64,000 nucleotides of DNA, taken from the sequence record PP449093.1. The stretch is one strand, 5' to 3'. A program made the translations under genes and the position numbers. Below the pieces are notes generated by a model that made no database searches, was not told where the DNA came from, and worked only from the letters and a program-made list of their open reading frames with translations. Of the stretch, positions 3,543-30,215 are shown piece after piece; position 1 is the first letter of the stretch, and each line of letters begins with the position of its first letter. This DNA comes from Escherichia coli phage phiS.

Positions 3543-3807
3543 TTTTTGGGTGATAAAAGTTGTGAAATATTTGTTATAATTTTAATTGTAGTTCCGTTAT
3601 GCAATTAAAAAGAGGATACTACATGTCTAACAAAATCAATGTATTACATCAAACAGAACAAATACCCAGACGAGATCGATACTATTTCGGCCTCGTTGCA
3701 TCACTATTCTAATACTCATGTATTGGAATCTCGCAATGGTTATCTGGTTGATGGCAATCAACTATTTCAATTAATTAAATTCGGATTTTCTATGGGAGTG
3801 GCTTTAT

Positions 3808-17736: not shown

Positions 17737-21345
<3,609 letters not shown>

Positions 21346-22222: not shown

Positions 22223-22959
22223 AAATTAGCAAAAGGTGAACCAGTGCCATTAATAGGATCAAACGGGTCAATAAAATCTTGTCCTTCGCTTCTGAATTGC
22301 TTATCTTCTTTGTACTGATCTAAGTTGATATCTGTTAACCCGTCCAGATTAGTGATCGGTGCAAGGTCCAGATCCGCAAACTCATCAACATTAATTCCCT
22401 CATTGCGTTGTAATTCTGGTCGCAATTCCTCACCGCTATACACGAATTTCTCTGCAATAATTTTACGCATGGCATTTTTGCCAGCCTGAAAAAACGGCTG
22501 ATATGGCTCTACATATGAGATTTCAAATAAATCATTGCTCATAGGAATGTAAAACAAATCACCGGATTTAGGCTCTTGGTTATCTACTTGATGTTTAAAT
22601 AAATTTGGATTTATAGTTATGGTTAACTCATCATTAGCGGTATAACCGAAAGATTGAAAGAAATTGCCAGCACCCTCATACCCATCGAAAGAATTTATGT
22701 ATGCTGCAAACTTCCACGCCTTAGTGAATTTGCTTTGCACGTCCTCCCCAAATATCATATCAGGTTTCACAAATTCTCTCGGTATGTAGTACATCTCGAC
22801 GCCGCGCATTTGTATAGACTCGGCAACCATAATATCGGCTAGAGTTTGTGTATTTGTATGTGAATTGAAATTCACATAAGGATTGAGAATTTCTGTTTGT
22901 CTAGTGTTCTCATAATCCTTCTGTGACTCCAATCTGGCAAATAATGTAGAGTCAAACAT
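22219..22959 (-). CDS. 14: neck protein gp14
   Basis: 246 aa; size and synteny. Confidence 0.8.
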
Positions 22960-23536
22960 AATAAAACTCCTTCCATTTTTCTGCGGTTGACTTTACTCGT
23001 TTCCTCATAGAAGCGGCTGATATCCCATACTTTCTACAACATTCTTGAGTGGTTAAGTATAGAACACCTTCTGCCATAATTTTTCTTGCGCCTTTAAAAT
23101 TTTCCCAATCTCTATTTCTATTTTTTGCCGATTGACTCATTTTATTTTTAGTCTCGTCTGAGTGAGATTCTCTTTTTCGACTGGATGCTTTTTCAGATAT
23201 TTTTCTTCTTGCTTCATTTTTGGTTTCTTCGTCCATGTCATCCCACAAAGAACCTCTATTCACTCCACCCAGAGCAATATTATATGTATCTTCTCTTTCT
23301 ACAAATTCCTTAGTCACTATCTTTTTTTCTGCTAAAGCTAGTTCTTCTAACGTGTTGTGTGTGGAAAGAATAGTTTTTGTGAAGTTCTCTATTCCATACT
23401 TTTTTATTGCTCTTTTAATTCGTTTTCCGCTCCCCCAATAAGAATCCTTTTCTATTGGTTTTCTGGACGTTCTCATACCAACATAGACCATCCCATTTAA
23501 ATTATTTGTTATTTGATATAGATAATAATATGCCAT
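22952..23536 (-). CDS. GIY-YIG homing endonuclease (Seg-like) inserted between genes 13 and 14
   Basis: N-terminal [18 protein letters not shown] core, C-terminal HTH-like region; own promoter. Confidence 0.7.
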
Positions 23537-23603: not shown

Positions 23604-24536
23604 TCAAATCATGAGGATGCCGAACGGAGGATCTAATAATTCTAGTTCTTGTCGCAATTTCTCAATGTCGGCTCGTGCTTCTTCAATGATTCGGATACCA
23701 TCAACAGTGACACCACCGGGTAATTGCAGACCTTGATGTTTAGCCATGATGGACCCCCAAACCTCCTTAGTGAAGGCGGTGGCCATATCTTTCACCCAAC
23801 GGTTATTATATGCGCCCTGCTTGTTCTCACTGATCGGTCCCATGCCAGCAACAATCCCGCTTAAACCAGCAGTTGGGTTATCATAAACGGCGCTAATCCC
23901 GCCAGCGGTAGAACATCCTCCCGCATGAGCATAACCAGCAACCGCACCGATCATATCAGGAACGTCTATATAGCTTTTAACATATAATTCAACAACAATG
24001 AGATCACCTTCTCGGAAGTTTCCTGTAATCTTAAGTTGTCCGTTTGCGCTATTATACCAATAATCTGGAAGCGGATTGAGCATATTTTGCATAGTTGCGC
24101 GATAGCTCATAAGCTGTTCGAAATATCCCAGATCACCGCCCATTGCATTTGGACCATAAAATTTACTACAGCCAGATCCTAAACCGCCATTTACACCCGC
24201 TAAACCCAACAGAAAGTCAGTAAACCACGGATAAACGGCAGTGCCATCCATCGTAGCCGCGCTACCTACGTTTGTTCGAATTATTTTAGTTACTGCGAAT
24301 ACTCCAGAATCGCTTAAATCAAATACCCCGTGTTGCGCTTGCTCTGCACTAACACGAAATACTTTATATCCTTTATTCACACCATCGAAATGATATTCCC
24401 CATAGAGTTCTAGTGCTCTCTGAATACAATCGTAAATCTGGTCTTCTGTGACTTCTACGTTAATTACTGGTGCGCCTAAACGACGCAGAATAGCGTCTTT
24501 TAATTCTCTTGGGTTATTGGTTACATATCCTGACAT
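23604..24536 (-). CDS. 13: neck protein gp13
   Basis: 310 aa; size and synteny. Confidence 0.8.
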
Positions 24537-24582
24537 AATATCACCTATAAACGGAAAAGGGGCTTAACGCCCCTTTAATTTC

Positions 24583-26352
24583 TTATACCGGAGAAATTCC
24601 AAAGAGGAACTCTTTAATTTGTAGCTGTTGCGCTAATGCTTCTTCGGATACGCCCTTAATGCGAATATCGATCCGGTCGCCCTTTTCAATATTTAGGAAA
24701 GCACTGGTAGAATAGCTAATTAAATCATCAGGTCCATAATGACCATTTCGTACCTCATGTACAATCAGACCATTTTTAGCAATACCGACTACGAAAGTAG
24801 CGTTATGTGCCGCATTTACAGAACAACGGAAATCACAACGGAATAAGCCTTTGTCGTTAACCGTAACAAGAGATTCGCTCTTAACCATTCCACGCGCAGG
24901 AACTTCTTCGGTCATATCGTTTAGCGGGATTCCTTTGTATTGATCTTGTCCGTCGAGAGTAATATCAATCTGAGCGGTGTTTTTAAATGCACCAGCCGCC
25001 CATGCGACCTGAACCCATTCCCCGTGCTTACGTAGATAATGGAAACCATCATCAGGAACGTCTGTTACCTTGCTTGCATTTGATGTGCTCAATTCCTTAA
25101 CAGTTTTCACGATCCCATCTTGTTCAAGCTGCGTGCTTCCTTCTGGATTGCCGTACATGTCGCTTGACAGCTTAATAACCCCGGCGGTTAGACCGGAATC
25201 TCGATCTCCGATCATTTGCTCGATATCCTGTACGCTAGCTTCTAGTCGTCCCTGTGTATTTTCTACAATTTTTAGACGACCTGCGATAGTATGACGCTCA
25301 CTATCAGTACCAACTGTGTTAGAGATTCGTGCAACCTCACCACGTAGACCATCAGCACCACTAACACCGACAATAGATTTAAGATCTACAAATTCCCGTT
25401 CTTGATTAGTCAATCGATAATCAATACTTCCAGCGGCTTGAGGACTGCCAATCGTATTTTCCAGAAGAGTTAAACGAGGACGGATACCAGCGTCAACCCC
25501 GTTGACTTCATCATTAAGCTGTGTATAATCAGATTGTAGCTTAGTTACTTTAGTACCGATATCAGGAATTGATTCAAATAGAATCGCTTTCTTTACTTCC
25601 TGAACTTCGTTTGATATACTAGCGATATTGCGAGTATTTGTGCGAAGACGAAGATAAACATTGTCCTGTGTTGCTAGTGATGTGTCGCCTAGCTCGCTTC
25701 GCATTTTGTTAACTTGTTCTGTTAGCTCTCCAACGTCAGAATCTTGCCAGTCGTTTTCTAGTTGGCGGATTCGCTGACCGTGGTTGTTTAATGCTTCCGT
25801 ATTCTGGATAACTCGATATTTGATACCGGAACCGGAACTACCCGGATCTGGAGAGCCGTTGATATTGAAGTTAGGGAAAGCGCCCAATTCTTGTTTGATG
25901 AAAGAAATATCATCATATATTGTTCGTGTACTCGGATCTGCTGCCGGACGAACACCAATTTTCTTTCCTGTCTCTGCCAGTTCATCTACTGTGGTTTGTA
26001 ATGTCCTTGAAGTTTCTCCTAAATTTTCTTCTACAGACTCAACCTTTGAAATAGTTTGATTGACAATATCAATAATACTACCATCAGCAACCGCGCCTAA
26101 AGTAGTTTTAATATCATTAACTGCTGTAACAACTTCGTTAACTTTTGTTACCGTTGTCTTAGAATTTTCATCCAGACGAACAATATTTTCTTGAATAGCA
26201 TAAGGGGCGCGGTTAAGCGTCCCCTCATGTCCTGTTTCTGTGGTTGCTGCGCTTAGACATTCACCATTTTTAATCCAGCTAATAGAATGCTGTCCCTCTC
26301 CAGGGACACCATCGACGTTAGGGATCTTTCGAATGTTTAACTGTTCGATCAT
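24583..26352 (-). CDS. wac: fibritin (whisker) with extended C-terminal domain
   Basis: N-terminus similar to T4 Wac (DG.P.EGQ..ISWIKNGE); coiled-coil body; foldon-like motif (DGFHYLRKHGEWV) followed by an extra 140 aa. Confidence 0.8.
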   Translation of the reverse strand: MIEQLNIRKIPNVDGVPGEGQHSISWIKNGECLSAATTETGHEGTLNRAPYAIQENIVRLDENSKTTVTKVNEVVTAVNDIKTTLGAVADGSIIDIVNQTISKVESVEENLGETSRTLQTTVDELAETGKKIGVRPAADPSTRTIYDDISFIKQELGAFPNFNINGSPDPGSSGSGIKYRVIQNTEALNNHGQRIRQLENDWQDSDVGELTEQVNKMRSELGDTSLATQDNVYLRLRTNTRNIASISNEVQEVKKAILFESIPDIGTKVTKLQSDYTQLNDEVNGVDAGIRPRLTLLENTIGSPQAAGSIDYRLTNQEREFVDLKSIVGVSGADGLRGEVARISNTVGTDSERHTIAGRLKIVENTQGRLEASVQDIEQMIGDRDSGLTAGVIKLSSDMYGNPEGSTQLEQDGIVKTVKELSTSNASKVTDVPDDGFHYLRKHGEWVQVAWAAGAFKNTAQIDITLDGQDQYKGIPLNDMTEEVPARGMVKSESLVTVNDKGLFRCDFRCSVNAAHNATFVVGIAKNGLIVHEVRNGHYGPDDLISYSTSAFLNIEKGDRIDIRIKGVSEEALAQQLQIKEFLFGISPV

Positions 26353-27755
26353 TATTGTACCCTTATCATGTAGTTTAATGCAAGGCTTTTAACGCGAGTT
26401 TCGCCAGACGTTCTAACCTGTCTTGCGCTGTCAAAGTTAACAATACTACCCCAATCATCACCACCACCGTTTTTATAGTTCGTGCTCCATTGACCACCTG
26501 TGATGGAAAATGCACCACCAGTCCAACCGCGCCAACGGTTAGCTACAGGGAAGTTACCTGTCATATGTTGCATGGTGTCGTCTTGATAAGTACCAAATCC
26601 ACGACCTGGGTCTAGTCCTCGACCGTGGTCGCATCCTCTAGCAACAAGCCCTCGCATATCGGGTAGAGCAAAGTTGTCTCCGCCATCTCCGCCGTAAGTG
26701 AAACCGATTCGTGAAAATAATACTGGATATTGGTGTTTATTTAACCATTGACCGTTACAGATTTTGAATTGTGCGTGGTCGAAACTGTTAAATGCTGTAA
26801 GAATGATGCCACCAATAGGCATACAAAGACCATCCAGTTCATTTTTAATGATAAACTGGTTTCCGTCGCCTCCGCTATGACGATACACATCACCAGTAAC
26901 GACACCACCACTTAGAGGCAATACACGAGCATTTGCCGACAGTGCTGTGTTTGCCTCGCCTGATCCTGGGTTATCTGTTAGCTTAACAACACCGAATTGT
27001 CCAGTGGTTGCTTTAGTGTTCGCAAATTTTTGTGCTGATACTACTACTGTGTTGTCATTGCCGTCAATCATTTGTTGGGATGAGGCAATTTTAACAGTAC
27101 CCGCCTGATTTTCATTGGCTCTTGCGTTGGAAAATGCATATGGACTAACGGCAAATCCTTCTCTGATAGTACCAGCAAGCGTTTGTTGGCTTGTCGCCAG
27201 TCTAACTAAACCCTCACGGGACTCGGTCGCCGTGTTTTGTTCTGGAATCAACCCAGGAACAATCTGAGCAATAGCAGCGTGCATCTTTTTAGGCGTTACT
27301 GCCATAGTGTCATCGCTACCTATTTTTGCCGCATCCATAGAACAGATTTTAATTGTACCCTGTACGGTTTCCGTTGCTTTCTTGTTCTCGAATACATGGG
27401 TTAATGTATCAGGACCAATTGCAATATTTGGAGTATCGCCCATAGCTTCATCGTTATTAGCATAGCGAGTGATCCCTTTGACAAGTTTTGTTGCGTCCGG
27501 TCTTGACAGCTTAACAGCCAATGTTTTTGGGGTAACAATTTTAGTTCCATCCAACCCATCATCTACTTCTTGTTGAGTAGCAATTTCAGCAATACCCGCT
27601 GTTTCTTCGGTTGCCGTTGGAAGACCTGCAATCGCAAATCCCTGAATAGCGGCTAATGCCGCTTGTACGTTTTTTATATTGCTAGGCCAATTTCCGGTAG
27701 GGTCAAACTTAACATACTGTGCATCGTCTTTTACGTGATTAATAGTGTTATTCAT
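26352..27755 (-). CDS. 12: short tail fiber gp12
   Basis: Similar to T4 gp12 (YVKFDP, ATESE.G..LAT, ALPDMRGL). Confidence 0.85.
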   Translation of the reverse strand: MNNTINHVKDDAQYVKFDPTGNWPSNIKNVQAALAAIQGFAIAGLPTATEETAGIAEIATQQEVDDGLDGTKIVTPKTLAVKLSRPDATKLVKGITRYANNDEAMGDTPNIAIGPDTLTHVFENKKATETVQGTIKICSMDAAKIGSDDTMAVTPKKMHAAIAQIVPGLIPEQNTATESREGLVRLATSQQTLAGTIREGFAVSPYAFSNARANENQAGTVKIASSQQMIDGNDNTVVVSAQKFANTKATTGQFGVVKLTDNPGSGEANTALSANARVLPLSGGVVTGDVYRHSGGDGNQFIIKNELDGLCMPIGGIILTAFNSFDHAQFKICNGQWLNKHQYPVLFSRIGFTYGGDGGDNFALPDMRGLVARGCDHGRGLDPGRGFGTYQDDTMQHMTGNFPVANRWRGWTGGAFSITGGQWSTNYKNGGGDDWGSIVNFDSARQVRTSGETRVKSLALNYMIRVQ

Positions 27756-27766
27756 AATTTTACACC

Positions 27767-28411
27767 TTACGCAATACGCTTAAAATAAAATAGTGTTGAA
27801 TCAAATTTTTCTTCCGTTCCCAATCTGGACCATGCACCATAACCATAACGAGCAGGGGAATTTATTTCCCCACGAACGCTAATACCATATTTTTCTACGA
27901 CCGTTGCTTCGTGTGCGTTTGAATCAATATACTGAATCTCTATTTTATCATTACCAGTGCCTTTCCGCTCAACTTTAGAGAATAAGATACTTTTGTCTTT
28001 CAATTCAGTAAATTTTGTTGTGACCATTTCGCATAATGCAACATTCGATGTTCCAACATTAACAACAAATGGATAACCCAAAACTTCAATTACAACTTTT
28101 GTCGCGGCTGGATCGTGTTTATTTGTTACCGTTCCAGTGAAAGAAAGAGTTTCTATTTGTCCCGCCGCTTCCGGTGGAGTTGAATTTGTAGTTACCAATA
28201 CATCACCGACATTAAGCATAGAAATGCTATACAAATCATCAATGGCTGATTGTACGTTGTTAATAAAAGAACCTTTGCGAGATTGGTCTACGTTTAATCC
28301 ACCAATTGGGCGAATGTCACCAATAATGGGGTCTTTCGACCCCGGATCGTATGAAATGAATGCTGCGTCGCTAGAAAATACGCTTGCTTTAGAACGTGTT
28401 TTAGAAATCAT
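27767..28411 (-). CDS. 11: baseplate wedge protein gp11
   Basis: 214 aa; size and synteny. Confidence 0.75.
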   Translation of the reverse strand: MISKTRSKASVFSSDAAFISYDPGSKDPIIGDIRPIGGLNVDQSRKGSFINNVQSAIDDLYSISMLNVGDVLVTTNSTPPEAAGQIETLSFTGTVTNKHDPAATKVVIEVLGYPFVVNVGTSNVALCEMVTTKFTELKDKSILFSKVERKGTGNDKIEIQYIDSNAHEATVVEKYGISVRGEINSPARYGYGAWSRLGTEEKFDSTLFYFKRIA

Positions 28412-28412
28412 A

Positions 28413-30215
28413 TTAACCTACCCTTAACCAGCGATGAACGGTACGATATGGAGGAAGAATACCCATCATTGATGGATCAGCATTTCCAGAATTAACTTTT
28501 ACGATATCCTCTCTATATTTCGTAAACGCTGGACCTGCCGCATCAGGATCAACTTGACAACCACCAATGATAATTGACCCTGTATCGTCTTTCACCAAAA
28601 CACGATCGCTGGATTGTAATTCAGGAATCATATCTTTCTTGATTTGATAGGCAACTTCACCACCAGTACCACCAGCGGTGTGTGTAGGTTGTCCATGAAT
28701 ATCAAGATCGTTATTGTTTAATGCAAAATTCTGGTCGCTGGCATCAGAAGACCAACCAGCAAGAAATTCTCCTTCCGCATACCGAACCCAGATACCAATA
28801 CCCATATATGTCGCTGGGTTAGCTGGGTTATGTGCGTTTTCGTATATCGTGCCGATCGGATGGAAAATATCAAACAGTGCATATATATCCATAATTCGAC
28901 CTGAATACTCTTCTGCCGGACGAGTGTTTTTCTGGCTAGGATTCTGGAAGTCGGTATATTCAATTTGTTTTGTTAAATTAACTTCGTCTTCGTTATTGAG
29001 ATAAATCTTGTCTGCTTTTTCTTTAATTCCGCCGACACCATCCCATTCTAATAGAGTTCCGATATCGTTATTAAACCAACGAATTGTTATAGTATCTCTA
29101 TTGTCCAACGCTTTAGCTAATTTAATCCCTGTTACAATGCTATTCTCATCAAATACCAGTGAATAATCTTCTCCAGACTGTACCCACTGACCGCCAGCAA
29201 GTGCGCAACTCTCTTCGGTTTCTCCGTCAGCACCTTCACAAACAAACGAAGGAAGATCAGCATCACCAGCTTTAATCATTTGAGTACCATTTATTAATAA
29301 CTCAAATGAATTTGGGTTAATTATATCACGTTTACTAACTCCCAAATCAGCATTGGTAAATTCTTTTTTCGTCGATAAATCACCTACCCACACTTCACCC
29401 GGAATAGTTTCTAGTGCTGTCATTCCGGTATCATACACTCTAATTGTGTGTGTGATATAACTAGATCGGAATGATGCAATTCCGTCCATATATGTAATAA
29501 TTTGAACGGTGTCCCCAGCCGAACAAGGAAAACGAAGTTTTATGCTTTTGCCATCAAGTTCAACAAGTGATCCATCCTCACCAATTGAACCGTAGTTAGA
29601 GTCATTACTAAAAGACTTGCCATAATATAAAAGGTTTCCTCGATAATATACTTCAACATTTCGAGTGTTATATGTGTTAGAACCAAATACATTAGGGAAA
29701 TCTGTTTGCCCTTCTGTGGCAATATAAACTTCCTTAGCTACTGTGCTTAGGTCAGACGTGGTGATCGTGTCAACTCGCTTGTTTTCGATATATTCCCAGC
29801 GTCCAGGCGCACAATAAACCAGTTCAACATCCATAAAATCTTTATACAACTCACGGTCGATTGGAGATCCCTTAATGGTATCACCTTGTGCTGGCTTCAA
29901 TGTTACGTTATGTGCAGCCCATGAGCGCCAAACATCACGAAGTTTAATTGTTTTATTGTAATCACTCGCGCTTCCTTTAGGCAATTCAACAGAAACAGCG
30001 TTGTTCGTTGTATTAATTGCCCATGCATCACCAAAATTTGGTTTTAATACTGGTTGTGTGTGAGTTTTCCACGCGCCGGATGCATGGGGGATATCACCGT
30101 CCCCCAGCTTAGTATAAAGTTCAGAAAAGTTGTCATTAATCTTTTGACCGCCTTTTCTTAGATAATCACCTGTACCGTCATCAACAACGTTACCGATATT
30201 AATTAATTGTTTCAT
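28413..30215 (-). CDS. 10: baseplate wedge protein gp10
   Basis: N-terminus INIGNVVDDGTGDYLRKGG as in T4 gp10. Confidence 0.9.
   Translation of the reverse strand: MKQLINIGNVVDDGTGDYLRKGGQKINDNFSELYTKLGDGDIPHASGAWKTHTQPVLKPNFGDAWAINTTNNAVSVELPKGSASDYNKTIKLRDVWRSWAAHNVTLKPAQGDTIKGSPIDRELYKDFMDVELVYCAPGRWEYIENKRVDTITTSDLSTVAKEVYIATEGQTDFPNVFGSNTYNTRNVEVYYRGNLLYYGKSFSNDSNYGSIGEDGSLVELDGKSIKLRFPCSAGDTVQIITYMDGIASFRSSYITHTIRVYDTGMTALETIPGEVWVGDLSTKKEFTNADLGVSKRDIINPNSFELLINGTQMIKAGDADLPSFVCEGADGETEESCALAGGQWVQSGEDYSLVFDENSIVTGIKLAKALDNRDTITIRWFNNDIGTLLEWDGVGGIKEKADKIYLNNEDEVNLTKQIEYTDFQNPSQKNTRPAEEYSGRIMDIYALFDIFHPIGTIYENAHNPANPATYMGIGIWVRYAEGEFLAGWSSDASDQNFALNNNDLDIHGQPTHTAGGTGGEVAYQIKKDMIPELQSSDRVLVKDDTGSIIIGGCQVDPDAAGPAFTKYREDIVKVNSGNADPSMMGILPPYRTVHRWLRVG

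Follow-up and report, generated by a model that had tools for sequence, protein, structure and literature searches.

What is the purpose of a neck whisker protein that runs on for 140 residues beyond the hairpin near which T4 fibritin ends? This question is raised by wac, the fibritin gene of Escherichia coli phage phiS (sequence record PP449093.1), within a stretch of 64,000 nucleotides (nt) that was analysed as a whole and is called the window here. An initial annotation of this DNA held that the 589-amino-acid (aa) wac product resembles T4 fibritin, carries a foldon-like motif and continues into an extra C-terminal domain, perhaps a jelly roll, that would place a ligand-binding head on the whiskers. 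The extra domain is confirmed: it comprises exactly aa 450-589, up to the stop codon, and the region first pointed out, 24586-25059, corresponds to Wac aa 432-589. It is an already published feature, known as the RB49-type fibritin, in a phage that is 99% identical to JSE here. What is new is the assignment of a C1q/TNF-like fold from structure prediction, the retention of the foldon hairpin instead of its replacement, and evidence for an exchange of the head core between lineages. The reading we favour, at roughly even odds (about 0.5), is that this is an RB49-type Wac of a JSE-like Krischvirus, whose trimeric head would register the coiled coil, form a distal knob and have the long tail fibre as its partner.

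The assignment of the gene to the fibritins is straightforward. The 589-aa product in the list of open reading frames (ORFs) aligns without a break over aa 7-430 to aa 6-435 of T4 fibritin (2bsg_A, E 1.8e-52, phmmer against PDB sequences), and the same type of search matches aa 7-84 to the T4 fibritin N-terminal fragments 1ox3_A and 2ibl_A (E about 2e-14); the virion-attachment domain of fibritin is its N-terminal ~50 aa (PMC3797505). The Pfam family PF07921 (Fibritin_C) is found with E 1.5e-24 and 86.4 bits against a cut-off of 21, over profile positions 2-91 of 93. In addition, the PHROG family phrog_1056, "fibritin neck whisker", spans Wac aa 1-581 (E 6.6e-181), and thus the family profile already takes in the extension. 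The annotated order gp12-wac-gp13 is the same in JSE, RB49, ECD7 and Phi1. The window wac is therefore a fibritin gene by its N-terminal domain, its shaft with Fibritin_C, and its position between genes 12 and 13.

The extension is also not peculiar to one isolate. The wac DNA is 99.0% identical to that of JSE, and all 57 matching records belong to Krischvirus (the RB49/Phi1/JSE group). A tblastn search with the 140-aa domain returned the same 57 records, at 100% query cover and 74-100% identity, and no match outside them among 50,697 phage records. The extension is intact in all 57 Krischvirus genomes, and a stop codon after the foldon, which resequencing might have revealed had the extension been spurious, is absent from every one. 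The six wac genes that were extracted (window, JSE, ECD7, KFS-EC, RB49 and JK32) are all 1770 nt long and have no internal stop and no indel; over the domain, 140 of 140 residues align, with 100% aa identity to JSE and 76.4% to RB49. The ratio of nonsynonymous to synonymous substitution rates (dN/dS, Nei-Gojobori) in the domain is 0.18 between the window and RB49, 0.15 between the window and JK32 and 0.07 between RB49 and JK32, at a synonymous divergence of 0.8-1.6 in the three comparisons, and thus the domain is under purifying selection. One may argue that the tail results from an annotation or sequence artefact, such as a lost stop codon or functionless readthrough, and the one point in favour of this is its unusual length relative to T4 fibritin (589 vs 487 aa). 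However, each of 57 independent genomes has an intact ORF, as does an uncultured sister lineage, dN/dS is 0.07-0.18 and a folded domain is predicted with confidence; these conservation data refute the artefact, which we give practically no chance.

The sister lineage came to light in a HMMER scan of 1.84 billion representative proteins with the domain, which gave three matches: an RB49-like fibritin, P0005 and P0006. P0005 is a 591-aa fibritin with 29-32% identity over the domain, and its shaft is 44-45% identical to those of Krischvirus fibritins. Homologues of gp12 and gp13 flank its gene on a metagenome contig of 11 kb, whose large terminase is 74% identical to Krischvirus terminases, its best match in the phage collection. 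Since P0005 has the same architecture, the combination of shaft, degenerate foldon and head predates the genus Krischvirus. P0006 was discarded as a homologue of the domain: it is a DUF7507/DUF11 repeat protein whose score was summed over six repeats, and the match is spurious.

Three further metagenome fragments, P0001-P0003, were the sole returns of word-indexed protein searches. P0001 and P0002 might be mistaken for evidence of a split gene, but they are 110-aa gene calls created by N-gaps in metagenome scaffolds, and P0003, which seems to be a fibritin ending after the foldon, comes from a contig that is an inverted chimera at that very place. All three are assembly artefacts, and represent neither a split gene nor a stop after the foldon. 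The breaks in wac lie at 3788..3928 of contig L001 and ~450..480 of contig L003 (N-gaps), and at 1623..1766 of contig L002 (inverted chimera). At such breaks gene callers make a spurious 110-aa "protein" starting from Met480, and these entries in protein databases are not separate genes.

A fibritin of this kind has been known for some time. Letarov et al. reportedly described the RB49-type expanded fibritin C-terminus in 2005, and the abstract of that work is said to state that the C-termini of Wac and gp36 co-vary among T4-type phages. "RB49 type" is one of eight types of fibritin C-terminus (Letarov and Krisch 2013, PMC3797505), and a 2022 paper likewise states that the Wac of RB49-like phages has a C-terminal part that bears no relation to the one in T4 (PMC9569957). 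The fibritins of T4, JS98, RB49, RB43 and Aeh1 have been analysed biochemically, and only those of T4 and JS98 fold to trimers on the foldon alone, whereas trimerisation and folding of RB49 fibritin need sequences in its expanded C-terminal domain (PMC3797505). The literature thus reports a requirement for the expanded C-terminus in a homologue whose domain is 76% identical to that of the window. That RB49 fibritin makes trimeric whiskers on the collar is likewise reported on biochemical grounds (PMC3797505).

The foldon is not simply missing from such a protein, and the foldon-like motif of the initial annotation is indeed present. Wac aa 425-449 aligns by phmmer to the T4 foldon segment aa 456-480 (DVPDDGFHYLRKHGEWVQV vs EAPRDGQAYVRKDGEWVFL), and the hairpin core is common to both (P, DG, Y, RK and GEWV). 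In contrast, the T4 foldon flanks, GYIP on the N-terminal side and STFL on the C-terminal side, are not conserved in the window Wac. Structure predictions place a hairpin at the motif (strands 6-11 and 14-20 of the modelled construct) with low to moderate confidence, and the first predicted strand of the head starts 3-4 residues past it. The lack of conservation in GYIP and STFL and the close approach of the head strand fit the published view that an RB49-type fibritin cannot rely on its foldon alone.

In the searchable literature we found no fold assignment for the RB49-type C-terminus, and PDB sequence and profile searches gave no match for the 140-aa domain. Structure was therefore predicted with AlphaFold2 (AF2) as monomers. 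For the window construct (aa 432-589), an alignment of 3 sequences gave an all-beta model, with a mean predicted local distance difference test score (pLDDT) of 68, a predicted template-modelling score (pTM) of 0.66 and core strands at 76-88; confidence is low in the foldon hairpin and in the loop aa 478-495. A second model, of P0005, has a mean pLDDT of 79.3 and a pTM of 0.73, and its strand order is the same. The structures closest to the predicted head are the CBDs of cyanophage A4 gp24 (9k09) and A-1(L) gp33 (8ke9), followed by a long row of C1q/TNF-superfamily proteins, namely Caprin-2 C1q (12.5), F-BclA (12.1), cerebellin (11.9), EDA (11.8), BclA (11.6), TWEAK (11.2), C1q and others; phage receptor-binding heads are also among the neighbours, namely TM4 gp23 (9.5), the receptor-binding protein (RBP) of lactococcal phage 1358 (9.3) and PRD1 P5 (9.2). 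A Foldseek search of the PDB with the P0005 model returned ExsFA/BxpB, 4-1BBL, TWEAK, EDA, PRD1 P5, the HS1 needle knob, BclA, C1QL and collagen X NC1, at E values of 7e-7 to 7e-5. Moreover, the matches of the window model in a Foldseek search of BFVD include many proteins of phages and giant viruses whose labels name a C1q domain or collagen triple-helix repeats.

Sequence profiles stay below their thresholds. Pfam BclA_C scores E 0.0064 (16.8 bits against a cut-off of 38) and E 0.00025 on two Krischvirus variants, both sub-threshold, and Pfam C1q scores E 0.011 on one variant, under its curated cut-off. The models and their neighbours suggest that the 140-aa domain is a beta-sandwich of the jelly-roll kind, with the size (about 130-150 aa) and topology of C1q/TNF domains, belonging to this superfamily by predicted fold and without significant sequence similarity. 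The guess of a jelly roll in the initial annotation is thus borne out at the level of prediction, by two all-beta models and their C1q/TNF-superfamily neighbours, and a disordered extension is not what the structure prediction and fold search gave. Separately, BFVD contains a free-standing 159-aa protein of Klebsiella phage KPV15 with a C1q/TNF-like fold as in the head, at 23% identity.

C1q/TNF-type heads are obligate trimers, and in C1q, collagen VIII/X NC1 and BclA the C-terminal head nucleates assembly of the trimeric stalk. In cyanophage A4 gp24, a domain for binding to the virion at the N terminus is followed by a three-helix alpha-helical stem and then by a head. Taken together, the obligate trimers and the design of A4 gp24 and A-1(L) gp33 lead to the proposal that the head of Wac trimerises, registers the coiled coil and forms a distal knob. 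Three C-terminal domains would associate round a three-fold axis, as C1q, TNF and BclA heads do, and the head trimer would set the chain register and nucleate zippering of the coiled coil from the C to the N terminus. The role of the 27-aa foldon of T4 would thereby pass to the head, with the degenerate foldon being insufficient alone. Each of the six whiskers would carry the trimeric head as a distal knob, the surface of which would contact the partner of the whisker.

By analogy with T4, the most likely partner of this knob would be the knee region of the long tail fibre, with its enlarged gp36 (496 aa), and such a contact would assist attachment of the fibres and hold them in the retracted state. 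In T4, fibritin governs how the long tail fibres are attached and how adsorption is switched on or off by the environment. Morphological and genetic evidence places the fibritin C-terminus in contact with the long tail fibre near its knee (PMC3797505). Among T4-type phages a novel Wac C-terminus is reported to co-occur with a novel gp36 C-terminus. The gp36 of JSE (496 aa; L009 34548..36038) has Pfam similarity to T4 gp36 only at aa 57-153, which fits the reported co-occurrence; its ~340 C-terminal residues are the region proposed as partner of the fibritin head. In addition, the head is 74-100% identical across 57 phages, lacks indels and is under purifying selection, which is easier to reconcile with a conserved partner than with variable glycans of the host.

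Several observations weigh against the long tail fibre as partner, or against the model on which the proposal is built. The models derive from a 3-sequence alignment, are monomers and, for the window itself, reach a pLDDT of only 68. Within the genus, the head variant shows no co-segregation with gp35 or gp36 variants: gp34, gp35 and gp36 are 92-98% identical among JSE, ECD7 and RB49, whereas wac is ~76% identical; in ECD7 the head is of JSE type and gp36 of RB49 type (98.7% identical to RB49 and 92.5% to JSE); and in MIZ4 and MIZ5 wac is window-like, yet their gp35-36 ranks second in divergence among the listed records. The fibre conformation of RB49-like phages before adsorption may also differ from that of T4 (PMC9569957), and many structural neighbours of the head are host-binding heads.

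The last of these points belongs to another possible explanation, which we consider clearly less probable than the fibre partner: the head at the whisker tip would be an accessory adhesin, binding a glycan or protein of the host surface or the environment for reversible pre-adsorption or for retention near hosts. Its top neighbours are heads credited with binding cell walls or receptors: the A4 gp24 and A-1(L) gp33 CBDs, the receptor-binding domain of TM4 gp23, the phage 1358 RBP with bound N-acetylglucosamine, PRD1 P5 and a TNF-like lectin of Photorhabdus. Binding to host cells in vitro has been seen for the stem-CBD of A-1(L) gp33, although not for the CBD alone. A similar role has been proposed for the Ig-like domains on RB43-type fibritin, and Letarov and Krisch consider that fibritins of non-T4 types may have adhesin-like roles (PMC3797505). 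Moreover, wac lies within a 5-kb deeply divergent block together with gp10, gp11 and gp12, the last being the module of the short fibre that binds lipopolysaccharide (LPS), and in a 2026 preprint, k-mers that predict specificity for LPS sugars fall in gp12 and in the adjacent fibritin gene, although linkage to gp12 may explain that signal. On the other hand, the domain belongs to those parts of wac that vary less, its variable positions do not cluster in loops (20 of 76 in strands and 22 of 64 outside them), and it has 0 indels in 57 phages from diverse E. coli and Shigella hosts, whereas gp37 drops to 40-50% identity in segments. Judged from these alignments, such low and evenly spread variation is not typical of receptor-binding tips, yet it would be compatible with a conserved ligand.

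It is unlikely, though less so than what follows, that the head is purely a module for folding and trimerisation, which replaces registration by the foldon and has no partner in the virion. C1q-type heads are autonomous trimerisation units, and the lack of covariation with long-tail-fibre hinge proteins within the genus is what such a module would lead one to expect, as is the reported dependence of RB49 fibritin on its expanded C-terminus for folding and trimerisation (PMC3797505). However, 27 aa of foldon suffice in T4 and the hairpin is kept here, so 140 extra residues seem excessive; the T4 fibritin C-terminus is a functional contact site (PMC3797505); and the fold serves binding in nearly all known contexts. 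The same C-terminal position and need in folding (PMC3797505) could suggest an intramolecular chaperone, removed by cleavage once assembly is complete in the manner of the C-terminal Peptidase_S74 domains in endosialidases and in the L-shaped fibres of T5. This is very improbable, and an S74-type chaperone was rejected on fold and on the absence of family matches: Pfam scans gave no match to Peptidase_S74 or another chaperone family, the predicted all-beta C1q/TNF jelly roll is not the S74 fold, and no conserved Ser-Lys cleavage motif turned up, although no search was aimed at one.

The history of the gene adds a further aspect. Krischvirus has three deep wac alleles (JSE, RB49 and JK32 types) and a chimeric one in ECD7 (L013), whose wac is 98-100% identical to RB49 up to ~aa 465 and 99% identical to the window from ~aa 480 to the stop. 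Sliding identities place the switch at codon ~474 (~24932 in the window); upstream the sequence is RB49/Phi1-type (Phi1 is L014) and downstream window/JSE-type, and the right end of the tract is lost in the conserved gene 13. The breaks in contigs L001 and L003 (N-gaps) and L002 (chimera) lie at or just upstream of the same junction (aa ~457-474), and assembly breaks of this kind would be expected from mixed populations in which both head types occur. On a larger scale, ~24600..29800 (~5.2 kb, with the gp10 C-terminus, gp11, gp12 and wac) has 61-84% nt identity between the JSE/window and RB49/Phi1 types, while its flanks are 94-100% identical. The two forms of the block are deep alleles, inside a single genus, of the module for short tail fibre and whisker.

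A segC-type GIY-YIG homing-endonuclease gene lies between genes 13 and 14, ~1 kb from the wac junction (Table 1). Its product has the Pfam SegE_GIY-YIG and I-TevI DNA-binding domains, and its GC content is 0.32-0.36. Phi1, kvi and ECD7 are the only phages of the collection that have it (99.3-99.7% identity). JSE and RB49 lack it, and in JSE another endonuclease gene sits between genes 14 and 15. At this locus (22952..23536 on the minus strand, and 22462..23061), the part of gene 14 beside segC, its 5' part, is 98-100% identical among phages with segC and 72-82% identical to those without it, a pattern that looks like a co-conversion tract. Hypothetically, if a donor resembling the window, with segC and a wac of JSE type, homed into a genome of RB49 type and co-conversion ran as far as codon ~474, the result would be exactly the structure of ECD7. 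A combined scenario, in which a C1q/TNF-like lectin or adhesin at the whisker tip provides a second low-affinity system for binding host or mucus, instead of or besides holding the fibres, and is moved as a cassette by segC co-conversion, seems to us rather doubtful.

Table 1. Features of wac and of the adjacent endonuclease locus (positions in the window)
Feature	Position	Strand	Basis
wac (fibritin / neck whisker), 589 aa + stop	24583..26352	minus	six-frame ORF list, translation
N-terminal neck-attachment domain, ~aa 7-84	26100..26334	minus	phmmer against T4 fibritin N-terminal fragments 1ox3_A and 2ibl_A
Segmented coiled-coil shaft, ~aa 85-430	25063..26099	minus	collinear with T4 fibritin shaft
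Pfam Fibritin_C region, aa 368-450 (last coiled-coil segments + foldon)	25003..25251	minus	PF07921
Foldon-like beta-hairpin motif DGFHYLRKHGEWVQV, aa 435-449	25006..25050	minus	translation, alignment to T4 aa 456-480
140-aa C-terminal domain, aa 450-589, "RB49-type" fibritin head	24586..25005	minus	predicted C1q/TNF-like jelly roll
ECD7 recombination breakpoint, wac aa ~474	~24920..24945 (switch ~24932)		sliding identities, five-genome alignment
segC-type GIY-YIG homing-endonuclease gene	22952..23536	minus	between genes 13 and 14, ~1 kb from the wac junction

The neighbourhood of wac is compact. Upstream, gp12 (26352..27755, 467 aa, with a phage Collar domain) ends in a stop codon that shares 1 nt with the wac ATG, and downstream gp13 (23604..24536) is followed by the GIY-YIG endonuclease ORF, gp14 and gp15. 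The 46-nt spacer between the wac stop and the gene 13 start contains a perfect palindromic GC-rich hairpin, AAAGGGGC-TTAAC-GCCCCTTT, at 24556..24576, which looks terminator-like on either strand. Elsewhere in the window, the large terminase gene gp17 is interrupted (17740..20851, minus strand). A 583-aa ORF covers Terminase_6N profile positions 5-106 and then has a TnsA-like or endonuclease I-like nuclease domain at aa 484-574, and Terminase_6N is taken up again from profile position 107 in an overlapping 459-aa ORF, which also has Terminase_6C. In Phi1 the gene is uninterrupted (1824 nt), and in ECD7 it is annotated at 2817 nt. The interruption is probably a mobile insertion, intein-like or a split gene.

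The biology itself is annotated and published, in a well-sampled phage genus. What the C1q/TNF-like assignment provides is a structural hypothesis, that of a trimeric knob which registers the coiled coil and presents a binding surface. If the adhesin explanation were true, the six neck whiskers would be a second, low-affinity host- or mucus-binding system, instead of or besides their role as holders of the long tail fibres. Of mild practical interest, the foldon is a tag in wide use in protein engineering, and here is a natural variant of it, kept but insufficient, that stands beside another domain for trimerisation.

Among known systems, the closest is the RB49-type fibritin of RB49, Phi1 and JSE itself, which has the same family, architecture, length of 589 aa and gp12-wac-gp13 position as the window Wac; aa identity to RB49 is 76-80% by region and 72% in the Fibritin_C region, and there is no substantive difference. 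T4 fibritin (2bsg, 1aa0, 1rfo) has the N-terminal domain, the collinear shaft and the foldon hairpin core in common with it, but ends 7 residues past the hairpin at a total of 487 aa, whereas the window Wac goes on for 140 to reach 589 aa. The C1q/TNF heads of BclA, gC1q, collagen VIII/X NC1, TNF ligands and ExsFA/BxpB are comparable by predicted fold; the window domain, predicted as a monomer only, has sequence similarity under every family threshold, and its stalk is an alpha-helical coiled coil, not collagen. Finally, A4 gp24 and A-1(L) gp33 follow the same plan as the window Wac, with an N-terminal virion anchor, an alpha-helical trimeric stem and a head, although their CBDs are 9-10% identical in sequence to the window head, and they are fibres attached to the tail or baseplate with a proposed receptor-binding role, whereas the window Wac is a neck whisker.

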